Assembly: GCA_964652065.1 (NCBI GenBank)
Contig: CAZYZU010000002.1
Span: 1 to 36,676, forward strand
DNA length: 36,676 nt
Reading direction: 5' to 3'
Source of the DNA: an uncultured Muribaculaceae bacterium
GTDB taxonomy: Bacteria; Bacillota_I; Bacilli_A; RF39; UBA660
The position numbers and the translations under genes were made by a program. Shown here piece after piece: positions 2,064-30,836 of the stretch (position 1 is the first letter of the stretch; each line of letters opens with the position of its first letter). The notes under the pieces were generated by a model. The model was not told where the DNA came from and did no database searches. It was given only the letters and a program-made list of their open reading frames with translations.

Positions 2064-2092
2064 TTGACACATTTTAATTTTTTTGGTATAAT
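2064..2092 (+). promoter_or_regulatory. consensus SigA-type promoter driving the 2.1-2.7 kb non-coding region
   Basis: TTGACA (2064-2069), 17-nt spacer, TGgTATAAT extended -10 (2084-2092). Confidence 0.7.
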
Positions 2093-2099
2093 TAACTTG

Positions 2100-2690: not shown

Positions 2691-2762
2691 TTTGTAATAA
2701 TTTATCTATTTTATGATAAAATTGTAGTAATAGATTTATATATATTAAAAGTGAGGATTATA

Positions 2763-3368
2763 ATGAAAATAAATAAAAAAGAAGTGGAAGATGAATTAAA
2801 AAATCTAAAGGTTCAAACTAGAAGAAAAGAAAAAATTAAAAAAGAGTTAGTAGATAAAAAATGGATTATTACTATTTTAGTAATTTCTTTTGCAATAAGT
2901 TTTTCATTATCGTTTATATCTGAAATGACTGTTCCTAAGTTTAGTTTAGTTATTGGATTAATTGTAACTTTACTATTTATATTTTTAGGTATTTTATTCG
3001 ATATAATTGGTGTTAGTGTTACTGCTGCTGATGAGAAAGTATTTCATTCAATGAATTCTAGAAAAGTACGTGGAGCAGATGTTGCAGTATTATTTAAAAA
3101 AAATTGTGATAAGGTATCAAGTTTTTGTTGTGATGTTATAGGTGATATTTGTGGAGTTATATCAGGATCTACTGCGGTTACTATTTCACTGTTAATATCA
3201 AAAAGTTTAAATTCAAATCTTTTATTAACAACTCTTATTGTAACGGGATTTATTTCTTCCTTAACAATTGGAGGTAAAGCAATAGGAAAAAGTTTTGCGA
3301 TAAATAAAAGTGATATTATTCTTTATGAGTTTTCAAAAACAATTTCTCATTTTTATAAATGTAAGTAG
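2763..3368 (+). CDS. small 4-TM membrane protein with basic N-terminus and DxxxD motif (OapA-like candidate)
   Basis: ATG at 2763 lies 5 nt after GTGAGGA. K/R-rich N-terminal ~35 aa, four predicted TM helices, motif CCDVIGDICGVISG. Terminator hairpin at 3367..3385. Confidence 0.45.
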   Translation: MKINKKEVEDELKNLKVQTRRKEKIKKELVDKKWIITILVISFAISFSLSFISEMTVPKFSLVIGLIVTLLFIFLGILFDIIGVSVTAADEKVFHSMNSRKVRGADVAVLFKKNCDKVSSFCCDVIGDICGVISGSTAVTISLLISKSLNSNLLLTTLIVTGFISSLTIGGKAIGKSFAINKSDIILYEFSKTISHFYKCK

Positions 3369-8475: not shown

Positions 8476-9536
8476 TTATTCTCCTTTCTATATTTTATTA
8501 AATCGTAAAATGCTTCTAGTATTGTCATTATTCCTTCATTAGATGTTTCACAGTCATATGAAAAAAATATAATGGGAATTTTCTTTTCAATTGCAACTTT
8601 TTTTATAATAGGTATAGCACCAACTTCTGGGGTACAACCAAAAGGTTTTGTATGAATAATTCCATCATATTTCTTAGATAATTTAATAGTTCTATAAACA
8701 TTATCTAATCCATCTGCTCCTAATGTGTATTTACAGTATTTTTTAGTATTTTTTAACATATGTTTTGTAATTAATCTTTTTTTCCATAAAAGGTATGATA
8801 GGTCTGTATATCTTTTTATTTCTATATTCATTTTAGCAAGTTCTTCTTCTAAAAAATATGAAGAAAATGGTTCCATTGAGGTATATAATTCTCCGATTAT
8901 TCCTACTTTTATGGGATGCTTTGGTTTATTAATTTTAATTTTTTTGAATTTTATTTTATATTTAAAGTAGGTAAAAGTTAATGTAGTTAGATGATTACAA
9001 TTAGAAAACGCTTTTAACATTTTATTTTGAAGAGATTTAAAACTATTTTTCTTTTCTTCAAAACCAATTCTTTTTCTGATTATAATATCTATTTTATCCA
9101 TATAATAAATAAAGAAAAAGGTAATTATAAAAGTATGGATAAATTTATAAAATGACAGGTGTTTATTTAAATCTTTAAAAATTTTATATATTTCAAAAAC
9201 ATGTAATCTATCTTTTGAAATGAGCTTTATAAATTTAAAATTATATCCTAAATCTTTTAAAATTTGCTCTTGTACTTCTGCGTAATATCTATATCTACAT
9301 CCACCTCCAGCTTGTACTAATATAGTTGTACCTTTATTAAGTGATTCTATAAAATTACCTAAGTTATATTTAAACGGAATACAGACGTCATTAGGTGAAT
9401 ATTTAGAACCTAATTCTAAGGTTTTTTTTGTAATAGGAGGGGCTTCAATTACTTCTAAATTTGTTAATTTCTTTAAAAGATATTTTACTGGTATAAAATA
9501 GTTACCAATATGAGGAAAACTAATTATTTCTTTCAT
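8472..9536 (-). CDS. 2-hydroxyacyl-CoA dehydratase-like / activase-associated subunit
   Basis: Overlaps both neighbours by a few nt (operon). Resembles the uncharacterised C-terminal halves of fused activase proteins. Assignment rests mainly on context. Confidence 0.5.
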   Translation of the reverse strand: MKEIISFPHIGNYFIPVKYLLKKLTNLEVIEAPPITKKTLELGSKYSPNDVCIPFKYNLGNFIESLNKGTTILVQAGGGCRYRYYAEVQEQILKDLGYNFKFIKLISKDRLHVFEIYKIFKDLNKHLSFYKFIHTFIITFFFIYYMDKIDIIIRKRIGFEEKKNSFKSLQNKMLKAFSNCNHLTTLTFTYFKYKIKFKKIKINKPKHPIKVGIIGELYTSMEPFSSYFLEEELAKMNIEIKRYTDLSYLLWKKRLITKHMLKNTKKYCKYTLGADGLDNVYRTIKLSKKYDGIIHTKPFGCTPEVGAIPIIKKVAIEKKIPIIFFSYDCETSNEGIMTILEAFYDLIKYRKENK

Positions 9537-10446
9537 TATATTCCTCCTTTTGTTTTAAAATATCAAAGAAACTTTCTAATCTTGTAATTATTCCAATATC
9601 ACTATTTATATCTTCCATAATAAGTTTTAATATTGGAATGTTTTTTATTTTTCTTATTGCTAATTCATTTGAAAGAGAATCAGGTCCACATGGAAATGAT
9701 GAAATCATAATAATACCATCTACTTTATCTTTATAATAATTAATACTTGCCATTACTTCTTTGCTGTGAGTCCAGTGGATATCTGTTGATATTTTTTCAC
9801 ATTCATCATCAATTAATTTGTGATTTATTGCATCACTATAGATGATAGTAATATTTTCATTTTTTAAGTAATCTATTATTGGTTTTCCAATTAAATTATC
9901 ATAGGTAATATAGGGATGAGCTGCGATAAGTATTTTTAAATTATCTTTTTTTAAATTATTTTCTTGAATATCTTCTTTTTCTAATCTTTGTTCTAAGTAT
10001 TTCTTTTTAGCAAATTTATAAGCATTATAACTATTAATATAAGAAAAACCTAAATCTTTTCCTAAATTTAGAAATCCTAATAATTCACTGTCTTTTGTTG
10101 TTAAATCAACATTGTAATTAAGAATGTTAATATCGTTAAATGTGTTATTTACTAAATCATATAAACAATTAAAATTTGTACAAACTTGTTCATTCTTTTT
10201 TACTGAAAATAATCTTGGTACTAAAATATAGTCACATTTATTTATTAAGTTATTTACATGACCTAAATATAATTTTAGAGAAAGACATGCTTCATCATTG
10301 GAAAGTGTATTTCCTTTTTCTAATATTTCTTTGTTACTTATATCACTTAATATTATGTCAATTTTTAAATATTTAAAAAAATTTATCCATAAATTTTTAT
10401 AGTAGTAATATAGTAAAGATTTAGGTATTCCTATTTTTATTTTCAT
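9520..10446 (-). CDS. 2-hydroxyacyl-CoA dehydratase-like / activase-associated subunit
   Basis: First gene of the three-gene minus-strand operon. Overlaps the next gene by 17 nt. Confidence 0.5.
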   Translation of the reverse strand: MKIKIGIPKSLLYYYYKNLWINFFKYLKIDIILSDISNKEILEKGNTLSNDEACLSLKLYLGHVNNLINKCDYILVPRLFSVKKNEQVCTNFNCLYDLVNNTFNDINILNYNVDLTTKDSELLGFLNLGKDLGFSYINSYNAYKFAKKKYLEQRLEKEDIQENNLKKDNLKILIAAHPYITYDNLIGKPIIDYLKNENITIIYSDAINHKLIDDECEKISTDIHWTHSKEVMASINYYKDKVDGIIMISSFPCGPDSLSNELAIRKIKNIPILKLIMEDINSDIGIITRLESFFDILKQKEEYNERNN

Positions 10447-17029: not shown

Positions 17030-17035
17030 ATATGT

Positions 17036-17257
17036 AGATGCATTGATATCGAGGAGTATATAATAAAAATTTTTAGAGAGGTTATGGTTGCTGAAAATAA
17101 CTAATTGATATTATAGAAGGTAGCGATGGAGCATAGTTATTGAAAATAAGTAAATAATTCCGGATAATTCCGTTAAAAATATTGAGATTATTATTTAATA
17201 ATAAATTAAGGTGGTACCACGAACTATTCGTCCTTATAGGATGGGTAGTTTTTTTTT
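17036..17257 (+). promoter_or_regulatory. T-box leader, probable Val specificity
   Basis: Stem I AGAGA bulge (about 17075). Candidate specifier GUA at 17120-17122 in GAAGGUAGC. T-box sequence AATTAAGGTGGTACCACG (17204-17221). Terminator CTATTCGTCC/AGGATGGGTAG plus T9 (17224-17257). Confidence 0.8.
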
Positions 17258-17271: not shown

Positions 17272-18027
17272 ATGGATAGAGCTATTGAAGAGTTTAAAAT
17301 TTATACTGATTCTTATATTGAAATAAGTGATAAATGTGTATTAAAAATAGATCATACTTTTCGAGTCATGGAATTATGTAAAAAGATTGCTTTGAGTTTA
17401 AATTTAAATAAAGAAGACATATCTTTAGCAATGTTATGTGGACTATTACATGATATTGGTAGATTTGAACAATGGAAGAGATATAATACTTTTGTAGATG
17501 GTAAAAGTATTGATCATGGCGATTTAGGAGTAGAAATTTTAACAACAAATAAATTTTTAAGAAAATTTATTGATTCTGAAGAATTTGATTCAATTATATT
17601 AAATAGTGTTTTATTTCATAATAAATATAATATTTCAAATGAATTGAGTGAGCGTGAAAAACTTTTTTGTAAAATAGTTAGAGATGCTGATAAAATTGAT
17701 ATTTTATATTTATATACAATTGGGCATTTAAGTGTTGATACAAATAATGAAATTTTTAGTGATGATGTATTAAATTCTTTAAGAAATAATAAGTTAATAG
17801 AAAGAAAAATGAAAAAGACTAAGGCAGATACTCTATCTGTATCACTGGGATTTGTTTTTGATATTAATTTTAAAAAAAGTATTGAAATATTAAAGAAAAA
17901 TAATTATATAAATAAGGAAATTGATATTTATAAAGAAAAAACTAATAATTTAGATTTTATTAATGAATTAGAAGAAGTTAGATTAATAATAAATAAATAT
18001 ATAGAAAGTAGGTTAGAATTATGTTAG
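17272..18027 (+). CDS. HD-domain phosphohydrolase
   Basis: ATG at 17272 after [18 protein letters not shown] motif. Stop overlaps the valS start (ATGTTAG). Confidence 0.7.
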
Positions 18028-18932
18028 ATAAAAAATATAATCATATAGAAGTAGAAGAGGGTAAATATAATGAATGGATAGAAAAAGGATATTTTTCATC
18101 GGGAGATATGTCAAAGAAACCTTTTTGCGTAGTTATTCCTCCACCAAATGTTACAGGTAAACTTCACTTAGGTCATGCTTGGGATGTAACACTTCAAGAT
18201 ATTATAATTCGTTATAAAAGAATGCAAGGATATGACTGTTTATGGCTTCCAGGAATGGATCATGCAGGTATTGCTACTCAAGCTAAAGTTGATAAAAAGT
18301 TACGTGATGAAGGAGTTAATCCTAGATCATTATCAAGAGAAGAATGGACTAAAAAAGCTTGGGAATGGAAAGATGAATTTGCACAAACTATTCATTCTCA
18401 ATGGGCTAAGATGGGTATTAGTGTTGATTATAATAAAGAAAGATTTACATTAGATGATGGTCTTAATCAAGCAGTTAACAAAGTGTTTATTGACTTATAT
18501 AATAAGGGTTTAATATATAGAGGAGAAAGAATTATTAACTGGGATCCTGTTCAAATGACAGCTTTATCTAATGAAGAAGTTATTTATCAAGATGATCCAG
18601 GGGCATTTTATCATTTGAAATATTTTATTGAAGATAGTGATAAATATTTAGAAGTTGCGACAACTCGTCCTGAAACATTATTTGGCGATACTGCAGTAGC
18701 AGTTAATCCAGAAGATGATAGATATAAAGATTTAATAGGAAAGAATGTTGTTTTACCAATAGTTAATAAGCTAATTCCAATTGTAGGAGATTCTCATGCT
18801 GATCCTGAGTTTGGTACTGGTGTTGTTAAAACGACACCCCTTGGTACAAACTCAATATTTACAAGGGTTAGCGAAGGGATAATGAACATAATTAATCAAT
18901 TATTTATACAAAGAAAAGAGGTAAATGCATAA
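18021..18932 (+). pseudogene. valS: 5' fragment of bacterial-type valS (native codons 1-270, then a 33-codon element-derived tail)
   Basis: [19 protein letters not shown] block ... [11 protein letters not shown]. The frame then diverges into TTPLGTNS... at 18831. The continuation is found at 30840. Confidence 0.9.
18832..18848 (+). repeat. left terminal arm (attL, element side)
   Basis: CGACACCCCTTGGTACA is an inverted partner of 30818..30836. Confidence 0.7.
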
Positions 18933-21349
18933 TGTTAGATAAAAAATATAACGCACAAGAAAAAGAAGAAAAATGGTTAAATTATTGGAAAGAAAATGGA
19001 GTTTATGATTTTAAACCAGATCAAAGAGAAGTTTTCTCAATAGATACTCCACCACCAACAGTTAATGGAAAAATACATATTGGACATATTTTTTCATATT
19101 CACAAACTGAAATGATTGCAAGATATAAAAGACTAAGAGGGTATAATATCTTTTATCCATTTGGATTTGATGATAATGGATTACCTAGTGAAAGATTAGT
19201 AGAAAAAGAACAAGGCAAAAAAGCACATGAAATTGGAAGAGAAGAATTTTCAAAATTATGTTATGAAACTACTGATAAATATGAGGCTGATTTTCAAAAC
19301 TTATTTAGTAAAATGGGAGTTAGTACAGATTGGAATATTCATTACAAAACGGTAAGCCCATCAACAATTAAAATTAGTCAAACATCATTTTTAGATTTAA
19401 TTGATAAAGGACATTGTTATCATAAAGAAAGTCCTGCATTATGGTGCAATGAATGTTTAACATCAATCGCACAAGCAGAACTTGAAACAAAAACAATTAA
19501 AACAACATTTAATTATGTTAATTTTAAAACAGTTGAAGATGGTGAAGAATTTACAATAGCAACTACTAGACCTGAATTATTACCAGCCATTGTATGCGTA
19601 TTTGTAAATCCTAAAGATGAAGAACATAATCATTTAATTGGAAAAACTGCTCATATTCCAGTTATAGATGTTGAAGTACCAATTATGGGTGATGAAAAAG
19701 TAGCAATTGATAAAGGTACAGGAGTTGTTATGTGCTGTACATTCGGTGATCAAACTGATATTGAATGGTGGAAGAAATATAATTTACCACTTAAGTATAT
19801 TTTTACTGCAGATGGTAAAATTATTGATTCTGTACCAAATTATGGTGGAATGAAAATAAAAGCAGCTAGAAAACAAATTGTTGAAGATTTACAGGCAGGT
19901 GGCTTTATTGTAAAAATAGAAGAATTAGAACACGAAGTACAAACACATGAAAGATGTGGAAGAGAAGTAGAATATTCAGTAATGAAACAATGGTTTATTG
20001 ATATTATGAACCATAAAAAAGATTTCTTGAAAATTGGTAATGAAATAAAATGGCATCCTGAACATATGCATAATAGATATAATGAATGGGTTGAAAATAT
20101 TTTATGGGATTGGTGTATTTCAAGACAAAGATATTTTGGTGTACCATTTCCAGTATGGTATTGTAAGGATTGTGGAGAACCTATCTTTGCTAAAAAAGAA
20201 GATTTACCAATTAATCCACTAACAACTAAACCACATATTGATAAATGTCCTAAATGTAATTGCAGTGAATTTGTTGCTGAAACTGATGTAATGGATACTT
20301 GGGCAACTTCATCTGTTACACCACTTATTAATATGAGATACGGTGAAAAAGAAAATTATGAAGACATATTAAAACCAATGAGTATAAGAACAAATGCATC
20401 TGAGATTATTAGGACATGGGATTTTTATACAATTGTAAAAAGTTTTTATCATTTTGGTATGCGTCCATGGAATAATGTTATGATTTCAGGATTTGTTATG
20501 GCAAGTAAAGGTGAAAAGATTAGTAAAAGTAAAGGAAATGCTAAAGTTGAACCAATAGATGTTATTAATCAATATTCTGCCGATGTAGTTAGATATTGGG
20601 CTGGATCAGGAAGACTTGGAACTGATATTGTATTTAGTGATGAAACTTTATTAAGAGGAAGAAAATTAGTTAATAAAATATGGAATGTCTCAAAATTTAT
20701 TGAAATGCATTTACAAGATTATGAAGATAAAGAGTTTAATAATTTTGAATATGTAGATAAATGGATATTGGGAAAATTTCAAGAAATGGAAGAAGGATTT
20801 GTTAAATATTTAGATGATTATGAAGTTGGATTAGCACTTAATCATTTAGAAAAATTCTTTTGGAATTTCTGTGATAATTATATAGAAATAGTTAAGCATA
20901 GACTATATAGACCTGAAGAATTTGGAGATGAACCAAGATATTCAGGACAAAAAACTGTATTTACAATATTATATAAATTATTACAAGACTTTAGTATATT
21001 CTTCCCATTTATTACTGAAGAAATATATCAAGAACTATATCATGGTAATAAATCAGTTCATTTAACTGAAATTAAACCATTAAATTTTGATTTTAGTAAA
21101 GAAATTATTAATGGTGATAAAATGATTGATATTATAAGTCAAGCAAGAGGAGAAAAATCAAATAATAATTTATCTTTAAAAACTCCTATAAAAATATTAG
21201 AATTAGGTGTTAATGAAGAACTTAAAAATGCTATAGAATCTTCTATTAAAGATTTTAAAGCAACATTATTTATAAAAGATTTAAAAATAGATATTTCTAA
21301 TGATGATAAAATAAATAAAATTGAATTAGAAATTGAAACAACAGAGTAA
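18932..21349 (+). CDS. valS: valine--tRNA ligase, divergent type-2 (archaeal/actinobacterial-like), element-encoded
   Basis: 805 aa. HIGH NGKIHIGHIFSY. KMSKS-like GEKISKSKGN. FPFGFDDNGLPSE, GTGVVMCCTFGDQTD, WCISRQRYFGVPFPVWYC. No C-terminal coiled coil. ATG overlaps the upstream TAA. Confidence 0.85.
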   Translation: MLDKKYNAQEKEEKWLNYWKENGVYDFKPDQREVFSIDTPPPTVNGKIHIGHIFSYSQTEMIARYKRLRGYNIFYPFGFDDNGLPSERLVEKEQGKKAHEIGREEFSKLCYETTDKYEADFQNLFSKMGVSTDWNIHYKTVSPSTIKISQTSFLDLIDKGHCYHKESPALWCNECLTSIAQAELETKTIKTTFNYVNFKTVEDGEEFTIATTRPELLPAIVCVFVNPKDEEHNHLIGKTAHIPVIDVEVPIMGDEKVAIDKGTGVVMCCTFGDQTDIEWWKKYNLPLKYIFTADGKIIDSVPNYGGMKIKAARKQIVEDLQAGGFIVKIEELEHEVQTHERCGREVEYSVMKQWFIDIMNHKKDFLKIGNEIKWHPEHMHNRYNEWVENILWDWCISRQRYFGVPFPVWYCKDCGEPIFAKKEDLPINPLTTKPHIDKCPKCNCSEFVAETDVMDTWATSSVTPLINMRYGEKENYEDILKPMSIRTNASEIIRTWDFYTIVKSFYHFGMRPWNNVMISGFVMASKGEKISKSKGNAKVEPIDVINQYSADVVRYWAGSGRLGTDIVFSDETLLRGRKLVNKIWNVSKFIEMHLQDYEDKEFNNFEYVDKWILGKFQEMEEGFVKYLDDYEVGLALNHLEKFFWNFCDNYIEIVKHRLYRPEEFGDEPRYSGQKTVFTILYKLLQDFSIFFPFITEEIYQELYHGNKSVHLTEIKPLNFDFSKEIINGDKMIDIISQARGEKSNNNLSLKTPIKILELGVNEELKNAIESSIKDFKATLFIKDLKIDISNDDKINKIELEIETTE

Positions 21350-21354
21350 TTTTA

Positions 21355-21382
21355 AAACATAGATAATTTCTATGTTTTTTTT
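21355..21382 (+). terminator. intrinsic terminator after element valS
   Basis: AAACATAG-ATAATTT-CTATGTTT followed by a T-run. Confidence 0.7.
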
Positions 21383-21407
21383 GAACAAAATTGGAGGTGA
21401 TAAATAA

Positions 21408-22165
21408 ATGACAGTTTTTAAAATTGAAAAACAAAGGATTTTACTGTAATGAGTAATCATCATTTAAGAGATAGAAACTTAACATATAAGGCTAAAGGAT
21501 TGTTATCATTCATGATATCTTTACCAGAAGATTGGGATTATTCTTTAGCAGGTTTGACAGCGATAAGTAGAGAAAGTAAGGATGGAATAAGATCAATTTT
21601 AAAAGAATTGCAGGATAATCATTACTTGGAAATAGAAAAAGTAAGAGGAGAAAAAGGATATTTTGAATATAATTATTTAATATATGAAAAACCACATTTT
21701 TTGTCATATGAAATTGACAATCAAAATCCATGTATGGAAAATCCACATCTGGATGAACCAGATATGGAAATATCAATACAAATAAATACTAATATATTAA
21801 ATACTAAGGAACAAATAGATAAAGGTGATAAAACAAAATCATCTTTTTTTATTGCTGAAGAACATAATGGCTTAACATTAAATTTGATTAATCGTGGTTA
21901 TATTAATGAATCTGATTTACAAGTTTTTTACTATGATAAAATGTATGATGATTTATTAGATGATGATAATTCATATAGAGATTTGTTAATTATATCTGAT
22001 TATGTTGTAAGTAGAGTAATAAAAAGAGATTTCAAAGATGATGATGGTAATGTAATAAAAAATAAATTTGGTTATTTAAAAGAGGGGATATATGTAAATA
22101 TCAGAAGAAGTCATTTGGATTTAGATGATTTATGGGGATTAAATGATGATGATATTGAAAGATAA
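21408..22165 (+). pseudogene. wHTH replication-initiator-like protein (plasmid/ICE Rep type), N-terminus frameshifted
   Basis: Strong RBS GGAGGTGA before ATG 21408 gives MTVFKIEKQRILL*. The main ORF (21449..22165, MSNHHLRDRNLTYKAKGLLSFMISLPEDWDYS) lies in another frame, and its upstream extension reads KDFTV. Confidence 0.55.
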
Positions 22166-22293
22166 TTTTTGTTTATCCAATTTTATATGATAAAAGAAAA
22201 TTATATTATAATACTAAAAACAGAATTATCCTTTATTGTGATAACTTTTTAATATAGAAAAATTGATATAGTAAAAAAATAAACTAAAATGTA

Positions 22294-22322
22294 TTGACTT
22301 AATTCAATAATAGTAGTATTAT
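22294..22322 (+). promoter_or_regulatory. promoter of leader ORF/RSH/YcaO/precursor unit
   Basis: TTGACT, 17-nt spacer, TATTAT. Confidence 0.5.
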
Positions 22323-22356
22323 TTAACTTAAATTATTTGAAAGGGGATTCTAAACT

Positions 22357-22482
22357 ATGAATAAACTCTTATTAGAAAAACAATTTAATAAAAATAGTTT
22401 TTATTACAAAATCATTTGCAACAATGACTGTTTATGCCTTTCCCTTGATAATATTACTATGTGTAAAAGAGTTCGACTTTAA
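22357..22482 (+). CDS. 41-codon Cys-rich small ORF (leader peptide or second RiPP substrate)
   Basis: MNKLLLEKQFNKNSFYYKIICNNDCLCLSLDNITMCKRVRL. RBS AAAGGGGA. The stop codon lies inside the 5' arm of the downstream terminator. Absent from the ORF track. Confidence 0.4.
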   Translation: MNKLLLEKQFNKNSFYYKIICNNDCLCLSLDNITMCKRVRL

Positions 22483-22511
22483 AATTATTATGTTTTAAAG
22501 TCGTCTTTTTT
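22473..22511 (+). terminator. intrinsic terminator/attenuator immediately upstream of the RSH gene
   Basis: CGACTTTAAA ... TTTAAAGTCG stem followed by TCTTTTTT. Ends 18 nt before ATG 22529. Confidence 0.65.
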
Positions 22512-22528
22512 ATAAGAAGGAGTATTTT

Positions 22529-23968
22529 ATGAGTGAAATTACTGTTGAATATTTATTAAAAAAGATAAAAGAATATAATCCAGAAGAAGAAAAGTCGATA
22601 ATGAAAGCTTATGAATTTGCCAATAATCTACATAGTGGTCAAATTAGACAGAGTGGTGAACCTTATATATCTCATCCATTGAATGTTGCTTATATTCTTG
22701 CTGAAATGAATGCAGATAAAGATACAATTTGTGCAGGATTATTACATGATACTTTGGAAGACACCAATACCACAAAAGAAGATATTTCACATGAATTTAA
22801 TGCTACTGTTGCTAACTTGGTTGATGGAGTAACAAAAATGAGCAAAATGAATTTTTCTTCTAAGCAAGCACAAAATATGGCAAACACAAGAAAAATAATT
22901 ACAGGAATTACTGAAGATGTTAGAATAATAATTATAAAGTTAGCAGATAGATTACATAATATGAGAACATTAGAATTTAAAAGTGAGTTTAAACAAAAAG
23001 AAAATGCACTAGAAACTATGGAAATATTTGTTCCACTTGCTTACTACATTGGTGCATATAGAATAAAATCTGAGTTAGAGGATTTATCTCTACAATATTT
23101 AAAACCAGATATGTATAAGACAATAAAGGAAAAACAACAAAAAATAGAATATGAAAGCAGAGATTGCTTACAAGAAATGTTAGGAAAAATTAAATCAATG
23201 TTAGAAGATAAGGATATTCCTAATGAAATTAAAGTTAGAACTAAAAATATTTATGGAATATACAAAAGATTAAATGATGGACATAAATTATCTGATATTC
23301 ATGATTTACTAGCATTGAAAATAATGGTAGATGAGATTGATAATTGTTATAGAACTTTAGGTATGATTCATCAAGAATATCATCCAATCAATGATAAGTT
23401 TAAAGATTATATTTGTAATCCAAAAACAAATATGTATAGATCATTACATACTACTGTTTTTGGACCTGATGATAGATTAGTACAAACACAAGTAAGAACA
23501 TTTGATATGGATAAGATTGCATCTTTTGGATTAACAGCATATTGGGCAGTACAAAAAGGGAAAGCAAGAGATGTTATGCAAAAAGATTTAAAAGAAAAAT
23601 ATCAGTTTTTTAAATCTTTAACTGAAATCAATACAATGTTTGGGGATAATCAACAATTTGTAAGTCAAGTTAAATGCGAATTATTTGCCGACAAAGTTTA
23701 TGCATACACCACCAAAGGTGATATAATTGAACTTCCTAAAGGTTCAACACCAATTGACTTTGCTTATAAAATTCATACTGATATTGGAAACACAATGGTT
23801 GGGGCTTTTGTAAATGATGAATATGTTCCTGTTGATTATATGTTAAGGAACAAAGATAGGGTAAAAATAATTACTGATGATTTATCATTTGGTCCAAGAA
23901 ACGATTGGGAAGAAAAGGCGCAAACCACATATGCAAAGAGAAAAATAAAAGAATTTAGTAAAAAATGA
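22529..23968 (+). CDS. truncated RelA/SpoT homologue (HD hydrolase + synthetase-like + TGS; no C-terminal regulatory domains)
   Basis: HPLNVA...LLHDTLEDT, DRLHNMRTL (hydrolase). VRTKNIYGIYKRL, DLLALKIMV, YRSLHTTV, QTQVRT (synthetase-like). TGS VYAYTTKGDIIELPKGSTPIDFAYKIH. Ends at the position where the helical/ZFD/ACT region normally begins. Confidence 0.85.
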   Translation: MSEITVEYLLKKIKEYNPEEEKSIMKAYEFANNLHSGQIRQSGEPYISHPLNVAYILAEMNADKDTICAGLLHDTLEDTNTTKEDISHEFNATVANLVDGVTKMSKMNFSSKQAQNMANTRKIITGITEDVRIIIIKLADRLHNMRTLEFKSEFKQKENALETMEIFVPLAYYIGAYRIKSELEDLSLQYLKPDMYKTIKEKQQKIEYESRDCLQEMLGKIKSMLEDKDIPNEIKVRTKNIYGIYKRLNDGHKLSDIHDLLALKIMVDEIDNCYRTLGMIHQEYHPINDKFKDYICNPKTNMYRSLHTTVFGPDDRLVQTQVRTFDMDKIASFGLTAYWAVQKGKARDVMQKDLKEKYQFFKSLTEINTMFGDNQQFVSQVKCELFADKVYAYTTKGDIIELPKGSTPIDFAYKIHTDIGNTMVGAFVNDEYVPVDYMLRNKDRVKIITDDLSFGPRNDWEEKAQTTYAKRKIKEFSKK

Positions 23969-23984
23969 AGTTTGAGGTGATGAT

Positions 23985-26111
23985 ATGATAAATTGGAAAA
24001 AATTCAAACCTATACTTGTTGTTCCTTCGATACCTACTGAAGATGGAATTAGATTTTTATGTCAAGATCAGCAATTGGATATTAATGGAGAAATAGTACC
24101 AATTTTGTGGAAAATTCTTTCTTTATGTAATGGATATAGAACATTAGATGAAATATTTGATGAATCTAAGATAGAATATGATCTTATAAAAGATATTTTA
24201 TCTGAGTTAAATGAACAGAACCTGATTTTTGATGCGTGCGAACAATATAAATATTTTCATTCTATCAGCAGTTATCCTGCAAAATATTTGCAATTATTAA
24301 GTGAAGAAGAAGTAATAAATCATAAAAAAAGTCAGAGAAAAGAAGTTAAAAAAGGAAAAAGTTTATCTTTTAATAATGATCAGGAATCATGTTTATATAA
24401 ATTGCAACTTAATAGAAAGTCCTGTAGAAATTTTTCAAAAGATAGAAAGTTATCATTAAATCAGCTTGGAAATATATGTAATTATGCGTATTCTTTAAAA
24501 AGACATGCAACCCCAAGTGGTGGAGCTCTTTATCCTTTAAAAATCTTTTGTATCGTAACACAAAATCAAAAAGATTTTGATTCTGGTTATTATGAATATG
24601 ATAATGAAAATGATAAGTTGGTACTATATAATTGTAATCCTGATAATGAGCAATTAAAATATTGCTATAATGATGAAAAATTAGCTTTCAATTCTTCTAT
24701 ACAAATAGTTATATGTGCAGACTTTGAAAGACAAGCATATAAATATTCAAATAGAGGTTATAGATTATCTCTAATAGAAGCAGGACAAGTAGCACAAAAT
24801 ATATCTTTATATTGTGAAGAAAAAGGACTATCAACCTGTGAACTTGGTGGTCTGCTTGATATTCCACTTGCTAAGGAATTAGATATATATGATAGTAATA
24901 TTTATCCTGTTTTAGGAATAGCAATTGGATACTCCGATTCTAAAGAAAATTTTAGTTATTCACAATTTTTGTCTAAGTTAACCAATGAATTTGTTGGCGA
25001 AAATAAACCAATAAAAAGTTTTGGAATTAATTACTTGAATATTTTTGATTCATCATTTTATGGTGCTTGGGCAAAATATGGAAATGATTCAAAAAGAATT
25101 GCTGGTGCAACAGCTCTATCTTATAATGAGTCAATTTGCAAAGCAATTATTGAAGGATATGAAAGATATCGTTCTGAAAAAGTAAGAATAGATTACGTTG
25201 GAGAATGTCAAAATTCAAAAAGATATTTTAATCCTGATGATATTGCACCTTTATCAAGCAAACAAAGAATATTGTGGGGATTAAAAAATTATACATTTGG
25301 GGATAAAATAGAATGGACAAAAGATATAACTGGCAAGTATTACATTCCAACGGATTTTGTTTTTTATGGACATAATAAAAAAGAAAAATTATTTTTAAGT
25401 GATTCTTCTGGTATAGCAGCATATTCGGATTATGAAACAGCAAAAAAAAGAGCTCTATTAGAACTTATTGAAAGAGATGCAATAATAAGAAATTGGTATA
25501 ATCAAATATCTGCACCAAAAGTTAATCCAGATATAGTATCTCAACATATAAAAAATAGAATTGAATATTGGAAAAATAAAGGAAGAACAATTCATATAAT
25601 GGATTTAGATTCAATATCTGCATCGGTTTTTCTTGTAGTTATAGTAAGTGATGAATATCCTTGCTTTGTAAGTGGATCATCTGCAGTTATTGATACGGCC
25701 GATAGTGCAATGCTAAAAGCATTGCAAGAAGCAGAATACAATTTGCTGTTAGCAATAGAAAATCCTTTTGAAAATGCACCTGAAATTGACAAAATAAAAA
25801 CCCCTCAAGATCATGGAAGGTATTATCATTTTTTAGAGAATGCAGATAAGATATCTTGGCTATGGAAAAGTAAACTTATTTCTGATAAACAAATTAAAAA
25901 AATTACAGATTTATCTAAGGCAATTGATGAATTAGATACTGTATTTGTTGATTTATCAGATAAGGACTCATCTATAAAAGTAGTTAGAGCTGTTTCTAGA
26001 AAACTTGTTCCTATAAGTTTTGGATACCATAGGGATTATTATTTGCATCATATATTACAAGAAAATGGATTTGATGAAAAAATAAGAAATCTTCCACATT
26101 ATTTTGCTTAA
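23985..26111 (+). CDS. fusion protein: PqqD-like RRE + SagB-type (nitroreductase-fold) dehydrogenase + YcaO cyclodehydratase
   Basis: N-terminus ILWKILSLCNGYRTLDEIFDES...LNEQNLIF (RRE-like). RKSCRNFS...TPSGGALYPLKIF...YKYSNRGYRLSLIEAGQVAQN...CELGG (SagB). AIIEGYERYRS...SSGIAAYSDYETAKKRALLELIERDAI...PQDHGRYY (YcaO). Confidence 0.85.
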   Translation: MINWKKFKPILVVPSIPTEDGIRFLCQDQQLDINGEIVPILWKILSLCNGYRTLDEIFDESKIEYDLIKDILSELNEQNLIFDACEQYKYFHSISSYPAKYLQLLSEEEVINHKKSQRKEVKKGKSLSFNNDQESCLYKLQLNRKSCRNFSKDRKLSLNQLGNICNYAYSLKRHATPSGGALYPLKIFCIVTQNQKDFDSGYYEYDNENDKLVLYNCNPDNEQLKYCYNDEKLAFNSSIQIVICADFERQAYKYSNRGYRLSLIEAGQVAQNISLYCEEKGLSTCELGGLLDIPLAKELDIYDSNIYPVLGIAIGYSDSKENFSYSQFLSKLTNEFVGENKPIKSFGINYLNIFDSSFYGAWAKYGNDSKRIAGATALSYNESICKAIIEGYERYRSEKVRIDYVGECQNSKRYFNPDDIAPLSSKQRILWGLKNYTFGDKIEWTKDITGKYYIPTDFVFYGHNKKEKLFLSDSSGIAAYSDYETAKKRALLELIERDAIIRNWYNQISAPKVNPDIVSQHIKNRIEYWKNKGRTIHIMDLDSISASVFLVVIVSDEYPCFVSGSSAVIDTADSAMLKALQEAEYNLLLAIENPFENAPEIDKIKTPQDHGRYYHFLENADKISWLWKSKLISDKQIKKITDLSKAIDELDTVFVDLSDKDSSIKVVRAVSRKLVPISFGYHRDYYLHHILQENGFDEKIRNLPHYFA

Positions 26112-26157
26112 CATTTAAAATGTTAATATATATTTATATATGAAAGGAGGTGATATT

Positions 26158-26271
26158 ATGGATAAGAAAGTTTTAAATTTCAAAAGTGTTAAATATACAA
26201 AATCAAACTCATTAGCAGCATGCGTAACTGGTGGTGGTGGTTGTGCTTGTGATGATGGTACAGGCGAATAA
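26158..26271 (+). CDS. 37-aa RiPP precursor peptide candidate (azol(in)e-type core)
   Basis: MDKKVLNFKSVKYTKSNSLAACVTGGGGCACDDGTGE. Near-consensus RBS GAAAGGAGGTGA 5 nt upstream. Terminator follows. Absent from the ORF track. Confidence 0.75.
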   Translation: MDKKVLNFKSVKYTKSNSLAACVTGGGGCACDDGTGE

Positions 26272-26288
26272 TCATTATTTGAGTTATA

Positions 26289-26317
26289 ACATCAGATTTT
26301 AATCTGGTGTTTTTTTA
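26289..26317 (+). terminator. intrinsic terminator after precursor gene
   Basis: ACATCAGAT / ATCTGGTGT stem followed by T7. Confidence 0.7.
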
Positions 26318-26371
26318 TAATTAATTATAATTATCATCTGATATTAATTGGGTAAGTAAAAAATGTAGCTA

Positions 26372-26815
26372 CTAACTACATTTTTTTGTCTTTCCTAGGA
26401 TATCATCTATTGAAATTTTATAATATTTTGCAAAATCTACTAATAAAGAAGTAAGTATTAATGTTTTTCCTAATTCATACTTAGAATAATTTGACTGATC
26501 TGTTTGTATGATTTTAGCAATTTTTTCTTGGGTATCATTATGCTTTTTTCTAATGTTTTTTAGATTGTTAGCAATGATATTTATATTTAATTCCTGATTT
26601 ATTATTTCTATATTTTTATTATTAGATAATCCACAAATATAATCTATACTTATATTAAAATAATTGACAAAATCATTTAGTTTTAATAATGGTATTGTGT
26701 CAATTCCATTTTCCCAACCTGCATAGGTAGATCTACTAACACCTAAAATTTGTGCCATTTCATTTTGTGTTTTATCAAAGTTTTCCCTAATATCTTTCAT
26801 TCTATTATAATCCAT
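26372..26815 (-). CDS. XRE-family regulator with two tandem HTH domains
   Basis: TQNEMAQILGVSRSTYAGWENG and TQEKIAKIIQTDQSNYSKYELG repeats. Confidence 0.85.
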   Translation of the reverse strand: MDYNRMKDIRENFDKTQNEMAQILGVSRSTYAGWENGIDTIPLLKLNDFVNYFNISIDYICGLSNNKNIEIINQELNINIIANNLKNIRKKHNDTQEKIAKIIQTDQSNYSKYELGKTLILTSLLVDFAKYYKISIDDILGKTKKCS

Positions 26816-26920
26816 GTAAACACCTCTTTAATAATTTTCTCATTTATAAATAAATAATTTAAAAAGTGTCGGGTATAGTCCTAAAATGTGATATAATATT
26901 TAAATGAAAGAGGTGATTTT

Positions 26921-27214
26921 ATGTACTTATCATTTAGAAATTTTTTTGGTATTGCAGTCAAAAGTTTATTAATTACTTTATGTATTGCTTTGTGTTTTGG
27001 GTTAGTGATTATTAATTGTAATTTTGCAGAATATATATGTAAAATTACAAGTATTCCAAATAATCTTGCATTAACTGTTATGAGTCCTGGTTTTTATAAT
27101 GAAGTAGTTATTATTACTAGTGTATTTGAAATAGGATTTTTAGTTTATATTTGTAATAAACTTCTTAAGTATCCTAAAATAAATGAATTGTACGAAAGAA
27201 TCTATTATTTATAA
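26921..27214 (+). CDS. small polytopic membrane protein (unknown; immunity candidate)
   Basis: 97 aa with 2-3 hydrophobic helices. RBS AGAGGTGA. Confidence 0.5.
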   Translation: MYLSFRNFFGIAVKSLLITLCIALCFGLVIINCNFAEYICKITSIPNNLALTVMSPGFYNEVVIITSVFEIGFLVYICNKLLKYPKINELYERIYYL

Positions 27215-27299
27215 ATATTATTAGTTAATATTGTTTACATATCGTAGTTTTAAATATATAATAGAAAACTACTAGCGAAAAGTATTGGAAGGTTATAAT

Positions 27300-27659
27300 A
27301 TGAATAATGAAGAATATGAAATGTTTTTTAATTTAATTGCAGTATTAGAAAAAGAAAAGAGAATAAATAAAAAATTTTACAATTCACCAGATACCAAATT
27401 TATTAAAAAAAATGAATTTGTTCTTTCTAATGATGTAAAAAAGGGATTAATATTATTTGAGTATAAAAGATATTTTTTATTAGATATTTATATAAGTGAT
27501 AGTAACAATATCTTAAATGGTCTATTAAACCTTAAAATAGAATCAAAAGAAGATGCAGAAATAGAATATAATAATTACATAGAATATGTAGAAAAAACAA
27601 GTGTCTTGCAGATAATGAAAAATAAAATAGAAAAAAATAATCAACCCCTTATAAAATAA
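27300..27659 (+). CDS. hypothetical protein
   Basis: About 119 aa from ATG 27300. No family recognised. Confidence 0.45.
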   Translation: MNNEEYEMFFNLIAVLEKEKRINKKFYNSPDTKFIKKNEFVLSNDVKKGLILFEYKRYFLLDIYISDSNNILNGLLNLKIESKEDAEIEYNNYIEYVEKTSVLQIMKNKIEKNNQPLIK

Positions 27660-27944
27660 GGACAAAACAAATAAAAAATCGAAAAAGTGCTTGAATTGGT
27701 ACTATAAGGTGTTTTTATTGTTCCAATATTATGCCTTAATTGGTACGAAAAAAGTGTTGATTTATCCTTGTCAAGTAGTATAATAATGTAAAATGAAATA
27801 AATGTGAGAAGAAAAAACACTTCTTGCATTTTTTTTGTTTAAAAAGTGTTGACAAGATAATCAAAAGAATATAAAATAAAAAATAATTTTATATGTAACT
27901 TTGATGGCAGTATTTTTCAAAGAACAATGTTGGGAGGAAACTCA

Positions 27945-28049
27945 ATGATATATGGGGATATTACTGCTTTTTTATTTAAAAATCTTAATGAACGATTAAT
28001 TGATTATCATGGATTTTCAACACCGATATTGAAAGAGAGATTGTTTTAG
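27945..28049 (+). CDS. 34-codon small ORF ending in the terminator stem
   Basis: MIYGDITAFLFKNLNERLIDYHGFSTPILKERLF. RBS GGGAGGA 6 nt upstream. Absent from the ORF track. Confidence 0.3.
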   Translation: MIYGDITAFLFKNLNERLIDYHGFSTPILKERLF

Positions 28050-28084
28050 GGACTTCTAGCCCCCAAAATTGTCTCTCTTTTTTC
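28032..28084 (+). terminator. long-stem intrinsic terminator/attenuator before the ArpU-like gene
   Basis: 16-bp stem AAAGAGAGATTGTTTT/AAAATTGTCTCTCTTT with one mismatch, 17-nt loop, then TTTT. The RBS and ATG 28101 follow immediately. Confidence 0.65.
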
Positions 28085-28100
28085 GTAGGAGGGTAAGGTT

Positions 28101-28556
28101 ATGGAAATATTATTACGAAAAGAAACAATAAGAGAGTTTGATGTAACATCATGTAAGGAGAATTTAGAAAAAATAATAACAGAGTATATTAAAGCAAAAT
28201 ACAGTTATATAAATATTAAAAAGCAGGGAGAAGAATATTACAATTCATCATCTGGTGTTAATTATGATTATAGACCTGAATGTTTTACTATTAAATATAG
28301 TGATAGAGTTGCTAATAAGATTGGTTTTAAAATAGATAATGAAAGAGAAGCAATAGAAGTAGGATATAAAATCAATGAATTATATAAAAAGTTTACTGAC
28401 GGAGAAAGAGATTTCTTTGATATTATTTTGCTTAATGGTAATGCTCAAAAATTTGTAGAAGATAAATACAGATTATCCAAACATGGTCTTGAGCCAATAA
28501 AACAAAGTTGTATAGTAAAATCAGCACTTCATTTTGGAGTTGCAGTTTATAGATAA
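28101..28556 (+). CDS. possible ArpU-family / sigma region-4-like transcriptional regulator
   Basis: 151 aa. Size, position and the C-terminal helix-rich segment (ERDFFDIILLNG...YRLSKHGLEPIKQSCIVKSALHFG) resemble phage ArpU regulators. Weak call. Confidence 0.3.
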   Translation: MEILLRKETIREFDVTSCKENLEKIITEYIKAKYSYINIKKQGEEYYNSSSGVNYDYRPECFTIKYSDRVANKIGFKIDNEREAIEVGYKINELYKKFTDGERDFFDIILLNGNAQKFVEDKYRLSKHGLEPIKQSCIVKSALHFGVAVYR

Positions 28557-28810
28557 TATTTCCATAGGGGCTTTATGCTCCTTTTATTTTGGAACAATTT
28601 ATGAGTTTATAGGGATCTCATTGTCAAAAAACTATGAAAGGAATGATTAAAAATGATGCAATTTATTTTAAAAATACCATAAATTAGTTTTTTTATTAAA
28701 AAACGCTTGCAAAAATCATGTTTTTAAGTGATTAATATATTAGAAGAAATATCTTATATAAAGCCATTTAAACGGCATATTTCAAATGTTAAGTTGGAGG
28801 TTGATAAGTT

Positions 28811-30802
28811 ATGAGCAAAAAAAGAAAGCGATTGTTATATTTGATTATTTTAGTTCTATTTTTTTTAATTATAATAGTATCTTTTATTTTTATTAATAAT
28901 ATAAAAAATAATAATAAAGATGTTAATGAATTAAATTCAGAACAAGAAGTTGAAAATGTTAAAGAAAGCAAAGAAGATGATGATGAACAAATAATAGAAG
29001 ATAAGGAAGATAAAATAGATGATGTTAATGAAACATCTGATGGCACTTCAAAGAACAATAGTAATAATGGTTCATCAAGTAATTATAATGTTACTACTGA
29101 TTCAACAAACAATACTTCTTCAAATAATAATAAAGTAACTCCACAATCTCCGCCTAATAATGATGAAACAATAAAAAAAGAAGAACCAGTACAACAAGCA
29201 CCACAAGAAGATTTAAGTAAGGTTGCAAATCCAAATGATTTCTTCTATTCAATAACTGGTGGTAAAGTAGAGTTTAACTCTAATACTGGTTGTATGTCAG
29301 CAGGAGATGAAATAGCACTTATAGATGTTGTTGATGTACAGTATTATAGATGCTATGAAGTATCATCAAAAGCAAATACTATTATGGGTTATTTCCTAAA
29401 TGTATTTTGTGCAAGTGGAAAAATAAAAGTTGTAATTGTAAAAAACTTATCTCGTTTAGGTAGAAGTAATTTTGAATGTGGTTATTATATGGATTATTAT
29501 TTTCCATCAGCCAATGTTAGATTTATGACTGTTCAAGAAGAAGTTGATACAAATGATGCATATAGTAGTAACAATGAATATGCACCTTTAAACAATTTTA
29601 TGAATGAAAAATATTCACGAGATTTATCAAAGAATATAAAAAATTCTAAAAGAGTAAAACAAAAAGCAGGGGAATATATTGGTAGCAATAATTCTCCATA
29701 TGGTTATAAAAAGGATCCTGCTGATAAACACCATCTAATAATAGATGAATATTCATCAACTATAGTTAAAAAGATATATGAATGGTATTTAGAAACAGGT
29801 TCTCAGGGAGAAGTTAGAAAAAGATTGTTTGAAAATAAAATTCCAACACCTGCTATATATCGCAATTATAAAACTATGACAGAAAAATTAAATAATCCAT
29901 ATCAATGGTCTGGAAGAACTATTAGATATATTTTAACAAGTCAAATGTATATTGGTAATATGGAACAACACAAGTATGAGAAAAAAAGTTTTAGAAGTAA
30001 AAAACTTTCTAGAGTTCCTAAGGAAAAATGGATTATAGTAGAAAATAAACATGAACCTATTATTGATAAAGATACATGGGATAAAGTTCAAAATATGATT
30101 AAAAACAATTATAAGCGGGCATCTACAAGACCACCAGAGTTATTTACAGGTATGCTTATATGTCATGAATGTAAACATAGAATGAGTATATCTACTAGAG
30201 ATAAAATTGGAAAAGATGGTACTTTTTATCATCATCAATACACCCAGTGCAATTATTATAGAAAAAATAGGAATTTAGGGGTTTGTTCTCTTCACTCAAC
30301 AAATTATTTAGAACTTGAAAAAGATGTTTTAAAGAAAATTGATGAGATTTGCAATAAATTTATAAAACTAATTAGTTATCAAAAAGTTACTAATGGAACA
30401 AAAATGGAAATGAGTTCTTATGAAAGAATATTAAATGAAAAAATTATTAAATTAGAATTTAATTTATCAAAAATTGATTGTCAAATTGAAAAATTATATA
30501 TGGATAGGTTGAATGATGTTATTTCAGTAGACACATATCAAAAAATATCTGCTAAATTTGAAACTGAAAAGGAACAATTAAAAACAACTCTAGAAGAAAT
30601 GAAAAATACATATATTCAATATCAACAAGATAATAATCAACAAACAATTTTATCAGCAAAAGAATTATCGGAAATGTATATAAAGCATAGAAAGAAACTT
30701 GATAGAGAATTGATAATGAAAATAGTAGATAGAATAGAAATACATGAAGATAAAAGTATAGATTTATTTCTAAAAATTAAGCCATTAGAACAGTTAATGT
30801 GA
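28811..30802 (+). CDS. chimeric ORF: TM/low-complexity exported-protein N-terminus fused to a large serine recombinase lacking the catalytic-Ser segment
   Basis: From about aa 203: GKIKVVIVKNLSRLGRSNFE, FMNEKYSRDLSKNIKNSKRVK, PYGYKKDPADKHHLIIDE, zinc ribbon CHECKHRM...CNYY..C, coiled coil. The first ~200 aa are unrelated (TM helix, D/E- and N/S-rich tracts). Confidence 0.8.
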   Translation: MSKKRKRLLYLIILVLFFLIIIVSFIFINNIKNNNKDVNELNSEQEVENVKESKEDDDEQIIEDKEDKIDDVNETSDGTSKNNSNNGSSSNYNVTTDSTNNTSSNNNKVTPQSPPNNDETIKKEEPVQQAPQEDLSKVANPNDFFYSITGGKVEFNSNTGCMSAGDEIALIDVVDVQYYRCYEVSSKANTIMGYFLNVFCASGKIKVVIVKNLSRLGRSNFECGYYMDYYFPSANVRFMTVQEEVDTNDAYSSNNEYAPLNNFMNEKYSRDLSKNIKNSKRVKQKAGEYIGSNNSPYGYKKDPADKHHLIIDEYSSTIVKKIYEWYLETGSQGEVRKRLFENKIPTPAIYRNYKTMTEKLNNPYQWSGRTIRYILTSQMYIGNMEQHKYEKKSFRSKKLSRVPKEKWIIVENKHEPIIDKDTWDKVQNMIKNNYKRASTRPPELFTGMLICHECKHRMSISTRDKIGKDGTFYHHQYTQCNYYRKNRNLGVCSLHSTNYLELEKDVLKKIDEICNKFIKLISYQKVTNGTKMEMSSYERILNEKIIKLEFNLSKIDCQIEKLYMDRLNDVISVDTYQKISAKFETEKEQLKTTLEEMKNTYIQYQQDNNQQTILSAKELSEMYIKHRKKLDRELIMKIVDRIEIHEDKSIDLFLKIKPLEQLM

Positions 30803-30817
30803 TGTATGATTATGATG

Positions 30818-30836
30818 TGTACCAAATGGTTTCGTG
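30818..30836 (+). repeat. right terminal arm (attR, element side)
   Basis: TGTACCAAATGGTTTCGTG. Its reverse complement CACGAAACCATTTGGTACA matches the left arm (outer 8/8, then 6/9). Confidence 0.7.

Follow-up and report, generated by a model that had tools for sequence, protein, structure and literature searches.

A candidate azole-forming RiPP locus with a fused RRE-SagB-YcaO enzyme inside a valS-splitting element of an uncultured Bacilli genome

Genes at the locus

The stretch of DNA analysed here (the window) comprises 36,676 nucleotides of contig CAZYZU010000002.1 (assembly GCA_964652065.1), from an uncultured bacterium deposited as Muribaculaceae and placed by GTDB in the lineage Bacillota_I; Bacilli_A; RF39; UBA660. 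It contains a two-gene locus predicted to produce a peptide that is made by ribosomes and modified after translation (RiPP), composed of a gene for a 708-aa enzyme and, starting 46 nt downstream, a small open reading frame (ORF) for the putative precursor peptide, MDKKVLNFKSVKYTKSNSLAACVTGGGGCACDDGTGE. The enzyme combines in a single chain a predicted RiPP recognition element (RRE), a SagB-type dehydrogenase domain dependent on flavin mononucleotide (FMN), and a YcaO domain. Both genes lie within an integrative element that interrupts valS, the host gene for valyl-tRNA synthetase (ValRS). The features are listed in Table 1.

Table 1. Features of the RiPP locus and of the element that surrounds it (window coordinates)
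Feature	Position	Strand	Basis
Enzyme gene with three predicted domains (RRE, SagB-type FMN dehydrogenase, YcaO cyclodehydratase), 708 aa	23985-26111	+	ORF, domains, model, homologs
Predicted N-terminal RRE, aa ~1-95	23985-24269	+	fold match; no PqqD sequence match
Predicted SagB-type FMN-dependent azoline dehydrogenase domain, aa ~130-320	24372-24944	+	PF00881, TIGR03605, motifs
Predicted YcaO ATP-dependent cyclodehydratase domain, aa ~340-708, C terminus LPHYFA	25002-26108	+	PF02624, motifs
Putative precursor gene, 37 aa; leader with K-V-L-N-F-K-x-V-x-Y, core CVTGGGGCACDDGTGE	26158-26271	+	ORF, conservation, codon differences
Ribosome-binding site GGAGG of the precursor gene	26146-26150	+	sequence
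Intrinsic terminator-like hairpin and T-run closing the operon	about 26288-26311	+	sequence scan
Integrative element in host valS with the RiPP pair as cargo, ~12 kb	18839-30833	+	split valS, junctions, repeat, integrase
Host valS N-terminal fragment, PRK05729 type, 303 aa, frame open to ...GTGVVKTTP	18021-18838	+	model positions 2-269
Element ValRS, complete, 805 aa, PRK13208 type	18932-21349	+	NF009687, 982.9 bits
Truncated RelA/SpoT homolog (Rel), 479 aa, HD, synthetase and TGS domains	22529-23968	+	TIGR00691 positions 1-451 of 687
Large serine recombinase (integrase), 663 aa	28811-30802	+	Resolvase, Recombinase, Zn_ribbon_recom; phrog_95 integrase
Host valS C-terminal fragment, 574 aa	30834-32558	+	model positions 265-857

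Domain structure of the enzyme

Pfam places a Nitroreductase domain (PF00881, 62 bits) at aa 143-316 of the enzyme and a YcaO domain (PF02624, 104.6 bits) at aa 378-670, and the NCBIfam SagB model TIGR03605 is passed at 89.8 bits against a cutoff of 78.4. Absence of a YcaO or SagB match had been named as grounds for abandoning the original prediction, made earlier from the letters of this DNA; both domains matched. In an end-to-end alignment of 30 homologs that are 41-66% identical (mean column identity 58%), the invariant residues of the dehydrogenase domain are R144/S146/R148, which we take to be the FMN phosphate motif (R144-x-S146-x-R148), S178-G179-G180 inside PSGGALYPL, and K253-Y254, the last two presumably representing the SagB signature (PSGGxLYP) and the Lys-Tyr motif of the dehydrogenases of thiazole/oxazole-modified microcins (TOMMs). 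Invariant in the YcaO domain are E390/E393/R394 and E493/E496/R497/D498, presumably the Mg/ATP motifs of YcaO proteins (ExxER and ELIERD, respectively), together with S474-S475-G476 and P704. The chain ends in L-P-H-Y-F-A, where H705/Y706/F707 following the invariant proline are at least 90% conserved.

A full-length AlphaFold2 model built from the homolog alignment (predicted local distance difference test, pLDDT, 86.8; predicted template modelling score, pTM, 0.83) was compared with the PDB using Foldseek. The LynD/TruD heterocyclases came first, aligned over the whole chain with an E-value of 4e-19, and further matches were McbD, other YcaO proteins, and the azoline oxidases BmdC, McbC and ThcOx. 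A sequence profile recovered the same set among PDB chains, with BmdC, McbC and ThcOx/CyaGox matching the dehydrogenase domain, and TruD, LynD, MusD and MJ1094 matching the YcaO domain.

The YcaO domain could potentially carry out other chemistry, such as thioamidation, amidine formation or ATP-dependent proteolysis, with the nitroreductase-fold domain serving as a structural or redox accessory. Thioamide-forming YcaOs of methanogens (MJ1094 and that of M. kandleri) and the YcaO peptidase MusD do score equal to LynD/TruD in both sequence and fold, and the C-terminal motif of the enzyme is non-canonical. We nevertheless consider this alternative very improbable: the window ORFs that were scanned include no TfuA gene, the fused domain scores above the cutoff of the SagB-specific model and has kept the Lys-Tyr motif, its closest solved relatives are the azoline oxidases named above, and all precursor cores are Cys-rich.

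The N-terminal domain is more divergent in sequence. Pfam returns only generic winged-helix families for it (HTH_47 in 17 of 23 family members, TrmB in 16), and when PDB sequences were searched with a profile the winged helix-turn-helix matches were weak and none was significant. A model of the isolated domain (pLDDT 92.6) consists of three strands (E15-18, E21-25 and E30-34) followed by three helices (H38-45, H54-61 and H65-77). When this fold was searched against 350,542 PDB chains, the closest neighbours were almost exclusively RREs, with that of PbtF at the top (8t19, E-value 2.9e-4) and TruD, LynD, TigE, McbB, TbiB1, PqqD, ThcOx and MccB among the others. On this ground we accept the N-terminal ~95 aa as a predicted RRE by fold, not by sequence family. 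The original prediction had divided the protein into a PqqD-like recognition element, a SagB-type dehydrogenase and a YcaO domain; the two catalytic parts stand as described, and the recognition element stands by its fold and not by PqqD-like sequence.

The precursor peptide

The precursor ATG is preceded by GGAGG at a distance of 7 nt, a feature that recurs ahead of every Bacilli-clade precursor gene examined, and the region around the gene contains five terminator-like sites against 1.0 expected. The 37-codon ORF, its ribosome-binding site and the hairpin behind it are thus as originally described. A 43-codon alternative frame beginning at 26140 merely reads the ribosome-binding site as codons; a large protein collection has the corresponding 43-aa form in just four clusters, all of them unnamed.

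A Cys/Gly-rich small ORF adjoins nearly every homolog of the fused enzyme, in 43 GTDB loci and in metagenome loci, and those that lack one are contig-edge cases or distant split-gene relatives. Failure to find the small ORF beside homologous fusions was a second outcome that had been set down as fatal, and the ORF is instead kept in many genomes. In the Bacilli/Tenericutes-like clade an ORF of 35-39 aa lies 3' of each fusion gene and encodes a core of the form [C/S]-[V/T]-[T/S]-GGGG-C-x-C... In Saccharibacteria, the small ORF lies upstream of the fusion and has a long, microcin B17-like core, NCGGAGCGSGCGGGCGGGGGSCGGGSGCNGGGGGGCGGGGK. Across the 17 core codons of six Bacilli-clade loci, we counted 112 synonymous and 18 nonsynonymous differences, summed over pairs. 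This excess indicates, at the level of codon comparison, that the small ORF is a translated gene with its core under strong purifying selection.

It could be argued that the small ORF arose by chance or that the enzyme has some other substrate, since gene finders rarely call it and it is never named. However, its position, ribosome-binding site, leader motif and core are conserved over dozens of loci in at least three phyla, and this conservation and the strong synonymous excess together effectively refute the argument, to which we assign next to no probability.

The leaders of the Bacilli-clade and Saccharibacteria precursors have in common the motif (K/R)-(I/L/V)-L-(N/D/E)-(F/V/I)-(K/T)-x-(V/T)-x-Y, in which the Tyr (Y13) is invariant and the Leu is at least 90% conserved. 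The motif is kept although the enzymes of the two clades are only ~43% identical, the cores differ, and the gene order is inverted. Such a cross-clade motif is the pattern predicted for a conserved pair of RRE and recognized leader.

Distribution and split relatives

The three-domain layout is not rare, and defines a large unnamed family. Full-length homologs of the enzyme fall into >120 clusters, and a hidden Markov model (HMM) search of 1.84 billion representatives returned 564 proteins at E<=1e-30, of which the best 150 (E<1e-100) are mostly 700-740 aa long with one continuous match. The layout therefore defines >100 clusters at 50% identity. Named genomes that encode the enzyme include Candidatus Saccharibacteria/Nanosyncoccus from oral and gut samples, metagenome-assembled genomes (MAGs) labelled 'Bacilli' or 'Tenericutes' from ruminant and human gut, and one MAG labelled Lachnospiraceae; the family is concentrated in Saccharibacteria and Tenericutes-like gut Bacilli. 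In the Lachnospiraceae-labelled MAG (L037, positions 8001-10295; L001-L060 are our labels for the loci compared with the window), the match to the fusion is broken into three segments by gaps or frame changes, yet the precursor downstream is intact. The interruption may reflect a pseudogene or a faulty assembly.

A more distant fused homolog occurs on the Rothia nasimurium plasmid NZ_CP056081.1 (L060, 4290-7061), in an actinobacterial host that has been cultured. It is also 708 aa long, is 31% identical to the window enzyme and has the same pair of Pfam domains. Two unannotated precursor-like ORFs lie upstream with a common leader, LTTLSV(K/S)VR, and one of them has a Gly/Cys-rich core, GKCGNGGSSCNGGGGGGCHALPPK.

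Split relatives (~28% identity) were found in Saccharibacteria, Parcubacteria and Yanofskybacteria, where two overlapping genes (L044-L047) encode an RRE-SagB protein of ~322 aa and a YcaO protein of ~505 aa whose C terminus is PFPHPFS or HPFTHPFA. A pair of this kind is the most likely origin of the fusion, by joining of an RRE-bearing B protein to the neighbouring D protein.

Gene neighbourhoods in the Saccharibacteria clade include a further conserved component. A DUF2268/DUF5700 gene, from a family of predicted Zn-proteases, directly adjoins the fusion in 28 of 36 loci of this clade (e.g. L004, 10190-10843), and the other neighbours vary. Its product is a candidate leader peptidase, which would give a three-gene cluster in Saccharibacteria. 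We found no counterpart of this DUF2268 peptidase in the window or in the Bacilli-clade loci.

The valS-splitting element

The element with its replacement ValRS around the RiPP pair is an addition to what had been noted for this DNA. Both halves of the host valS are still in frame, and the insertion lies inside a conserved motif of the gene. Comparison of the junctions with the intact valS of locus L059 revealed an imperfect 15-bp direct repeat (gttaaaacgacaccc and gtgaaaattactcct in the window versus gttaaaattacacca). An integrase at one end, a target split in frame, and a short imperfect repeat at the junctions together identify an integrative element of the large-serine-recombinase type.

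The element ValRS shares only 28-32% identity with the host type, and its start codon overlaps the stop codon of the host valS N-terminal fragment (TAATG). A T-box leader at 17034-17238 (+, 134.7 bits) heads the operon of an HD-domain gene and valS that the element breaks. The overlap places the element ValRS behind the host T-box leader, and judging from this arrangement it would inherit T-box control. To interrupt an essential gene for a tRNA synthetase, take over the T-box-controlled promoter of that gene and bring along a divergent replacement is a notable strategy for a mobile element.

The truncated Rel encoded downstream lacks the C-terminal regulatory domains, and its gene ends 16 nt ahead of the enzyme gene; from this spacing, the rel-like gene and the RiPP pair are probably co-transcribed. 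A gap of 364 nt (22165-22529) precedes rel and contains a strong bidirectional terminator-like hairpin (22474-22503), 25 nt ahead of the start codon, which is a possible attenuator or leader. In the segment upstream of rel (22100-22600), nothing in Rfam matched at E<=1 that would point to a riboswitch or leader. Other cargo comprises a DnaD-like replication initiator, an XRE repressor and three unknown ORFs. Just past the repressor, at 26921-27214 (+), is a hydrophobic ORF of 97 aa with apparently two or three membrane helices and no family match; conceivably it is an immunity protein or a small membrane protein of the element.

Related genomes present a decay series at the same valS site. In L008-L010 the alternative ValRS, the fusion and the peptide lie between valS remnants, and in L001/L007 and L054/55 the same site has no valS remnants. 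Loci L050-L053 retain a 54-aa valS remnant, the alternative ValRS, an HTH_36 remnant and Rel, and have no RiPP genes. More divergent pairs of fusion and peptide genes occur elsewhere, in L056 near radical SAM genes and in L057 beside CRISPR-Cas. A Rel of constant length (479 aa) accompanies the element-type ValRS in many genomes, e.g. in L001 (6550-7989, before the fusion; 76% identical to that of the window) and L050-L053 (10691-12130).

The element-type ValRS is 84-91% identical across >120 protein clusters and across hosts, compared with 33-60% for the flanking HD, MreC and RadC proteins and 58-65% for the fusion enzymes in the same loci (L001, L008, L009 and L054). The ValRS, the fusion enzyme and the flanking genes therefore have strikingly unequal rates or histories.

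One interpretation of this association is self-resistance: the azole peptide would inhibit bacterial-type ValRS or valine-tRNA charging in competitors, the element ValRS and the truncated Rel would protect the producer, and disruption of the sensitive host valS would complete immunity. If true, this would account for the apparent sweep of one ValRS allele through gut Bacilli. The closer subclade (at least 58% identity) always has the RiPP pair beside valS (window, L001/L007, L008-L010, L054/55 and L059), the near-uniform ValRS amid divergent flanks suggests recent horizontal spread under selection, the cargo has a common theme of tRNA charging and stringent response, and the Val-Thr of the core could become a valyl-methyloxazole. 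However, the block of alternative ValRS and Rel is common without RiPP genes (L050-L053), and the RiPP pair stands without a ValRS in L056 and L057, in Rothia and in every Saccharibacteria locus, two observations that led us to downgrade a strict role of the ValRS as immunity gene. In L059, moreover, a core identical to that of the window lies directly upstream of an intact bacterial-type valS, and in a simpler view any element that attaches in an essential gene must bring a replacement copy. We therefore regard self-resistance as quite unlikely; in our view the RiPP pair is accessory cargo that travels with a valS-replacing element and has no obligatory link to the ValRS.

PADLOC assigned nothing to the enzyme, the ValRS or the hypothetical proteins and gave only a weak PDC-S33 match for Rel, on which basis we rejected membership of a defence system. 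No homolog of the fusion was found in 50,697 phage records and it has no PHROG match, and a phage origin was rejected accordingly.

Near the start of the window, at 2090-2697 (+), the model of the ornate large extremophilic (OLE) RNA is matched over its full length (376 bits, positions 1-616 of 616), in a genome that appears to be of the low-GC, Tenericutes-like gut Bacilli. The ORFs beside it (2751-3368 and 3486-4829) have no Pfam match.

Predicted pathway and biological role

We consider it probable that the pair constitutes a minimal azole-forming system of the TOMM or linear azole-containing peptide (LAP) type, guided by an RRE and composed of one enzyme and one precursor. This assignment draws on domain identity, conserved motifs, fold, and the co-conservation of enzyme, leader and core, from which we infer every chemical step. 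Of the components expected in TOMM/LAP loci, a YcaO protein with ATP/Mg motifs, a SagB-type dehydrogenase with the Lys-Tyr motif and an adjoining short precursor are present. An E1-like (C) or Ocin-ThiF-like (F) partner, separate or fused, is not: as the original prediction had held, none was detected in the enzyme, the element or the window ORFs scanned. What the locus has of such partners is the RRE alone, fused to the dehydrogenase.

In the pathway that we propose, the K-(I/L/V)-L-(N/D)-(F/V/I)-K-x-(V/T)-x-Y stretch of the leader would be bound by the RRE, most likely by joining its sheet as an extra beta-strand, the mode seen in other RREs. The tethered core CVTGGGGCACDDGTGE would then reach the YcaO domain. 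By ATP-dependent activation of the backbone, this domain would cyclodehydrate Cys22, Cys29 and Cys31, giving thiazolines, and might do the same with Thr24 and Thr35, giving methyloxazolines. Oxidation of the azolines to azoles would follow in the fused SagB-type FMN domain, with an expected mass change of -20 Da per azole, or about -60 Da for three thiazoles. Because the dehydrogenase domain would occupy the place of the E1-like domain in LynD/TruD, no separate C or F partner would be needed. Leader removal and export, if any, would use unlinked host functions, as in the case of microcin B17, whose leader is removed by the unlinked host proteases TldD/E.

Several observations weigh against the azole-forming assignment. 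None of 23 family members has a match to PF05402 (PqqD) in the N-terminal domain, even at E<=10, which led us to reject membership of the PqqD sequence family, and the best fold E-value of this domain is no better than the 2.9e-4 given above. The best NCBIfam YcaO model, TIGR03604 (TOMM SagD family), scores 92 bits, under its full-length curated cutoff. The YcaO domain ends in PHYFA and not in the Pro-rich PxPxP motif that, following work by Dunbar and colleagues in 2014, is said to be typical of azoline-forming YcaOs; given the PFPHPFS and HPFTHPFA ends of the split relatives in the Candidate Phyla Radiation (CPR), PHYFA looks like a degenerate variant of that motif. Finally, there is no linked exporter, immunity gene or peptidase, which for a secreted toxin is unusual. 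Domain scans found no TfuA, peptidase, ABC exporter or recognisable immunity gene in the element or the window ORFs scanned, in line with the earlier claim that the element has neither leader peptidase nor exporter, and the sole ABC protein in the window (4886-6475) is of the ABC-F type with an ABC_tran_Xtn linker.

This gene content could mean that the modified peptide acts inside its producer, e.g. in metal binding or regulation. Such a role would also fit the close spacing of the enzyme gene after relA or valS, which are housekeeping-type genes, in reduced genomes, the almost invariant core across enzymes that have diverged to 60-65% identity, and the enrichment of the family in reduced-genome lineages. 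On the other hand, the known products of YcaO and SagB enzymes are secreted toxins or antibiotics (PMC7136475), the patchy distribution on mobile elements and plasmids fits accessory genes for competition, and the conserved putative Zn-protease (DUF2268) of the Saccharibacteria loci suggests leader removal and maturation. We regard an intracellular role as unlikely. The product of the azole-forming pathway is most likely an antibacterial or competition peptide.

If the biochemistry holds, the E1-like/Ocin-ThiF partner, regarded as all but obligatory for azoline-forming YcaOs, would be replaceable by an RRE on the dehydrogenase, with all three activities in one chain of ~80 kDa. Such a compact azole synthetase, needing one enzyme and a leader tag of ~20 residues, would be attractive for peptide engineering. 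Ultra-small Saccharibacteria and Tenericutes-like gut Bacilli would also have a conserved microcin B17-like capability that is now annotated only as 'YcaO-like family protein'.

Comparison with known systems

Microcin B17 of E. coli (McbBCD with the precursor McbA) has the chemistry that is predicted here from the genes, a YcaO cyclodehydratase and an FMN dehydrogenase acting on a Gly/Cys-rich linear precursor. McbD and McbC match the two catalytic domains structurally, and the leader-binding domain of McbB matches the N-terminal domain. However, McbB, McbC and McbD are three proteins assembled in an octamer (PMC6395948), whereas the window encodes a single polypeptide that lacks the E1-like, zinc-binding body of McbB. 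The window also lacks McbEFG-type export or immunity genes, and the three Cys of its core CVTGGGGCACDDGTGE each stand alone, without a Ser next to any of them to give the Ser-Cys or Cys-Ser pairs of fused bis-heterocycles. On both counts, the window product does not fit the description of a gyrase poison of the microcin B17 type. The suggested resemblance to microcin B17 is loose for this core, and much closer for the Saccharibacteria relatives, whose precursors do contain such pairs, in GSC and SGC contexts.

The best full-length structural match is to the cyanobactin heterocyclases LynD/TruD, which likewise have an N-terminal RRE, a middle domain and a C-terminal YcaO domain in one chain. 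Their middle domain is a non-catalytic E1-like domain, in contrast to the predicted catalytic SagB-type dehydrogenase of the window enzyme, and they produce azolines only, with oxidation left to a separate enzyme. The ThcOx/CyaGox oxidase resembles the other end of the protein, with RRE-type domains N-terminal to an azoline oxidase, and matches both the N-terminal and the oxidase domains. It differs in having two RRE-like domains and no YcaO domain, in place of one RRE and a C-terminal YcaO.

LAP clusters reported from CPR genomes have a nitroreductase gene adjoining YcaO, plus a peptidase (Sharrar et al. 2020, PMC7298704). They are similar in placing YcaO beside a nitroreductase-type dehydrogenase with a small precursor nearby, and the split pairs of L044-L047 are of this type. 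In these clusters the components are separate genes, often with a peptidase, and that paper does not describe a fused three-domain enzyme, members in Saccharibacteria or Bacilli, or an RRE on the dehydrogenase. A Corynebacterium plasmid provides a further contrast, with the canonical layout of separate genes for an ABC transporter, a TOMM leader-binding protein, YcaO and SagB.

The partners described for YcaO proteins are E1-like, ThiF-like or TfuA proteins, and the fusions mentioned are C-D and B-PatG only (Cox et al. 2015, PMC4603692; Travin et al. 2020, PMC7136475). This agrees with the view, already taken in the original prediction, that a dehydrogenase joined to YcaO departs from the canonical TOMM layout. 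We found no paper describing a dehydrogenase-YcaO fusion, or this enzyme family in Saccharibacteria, Patescibacteria or Rothia, although the YcaO review PMC5406272 may mention one. The three-domain layout is apparently an undescribed architectural variation on the known TOMM/LAP pathway rather than a system of a new kind, and represents a large, unnamed and uncharacterised family.

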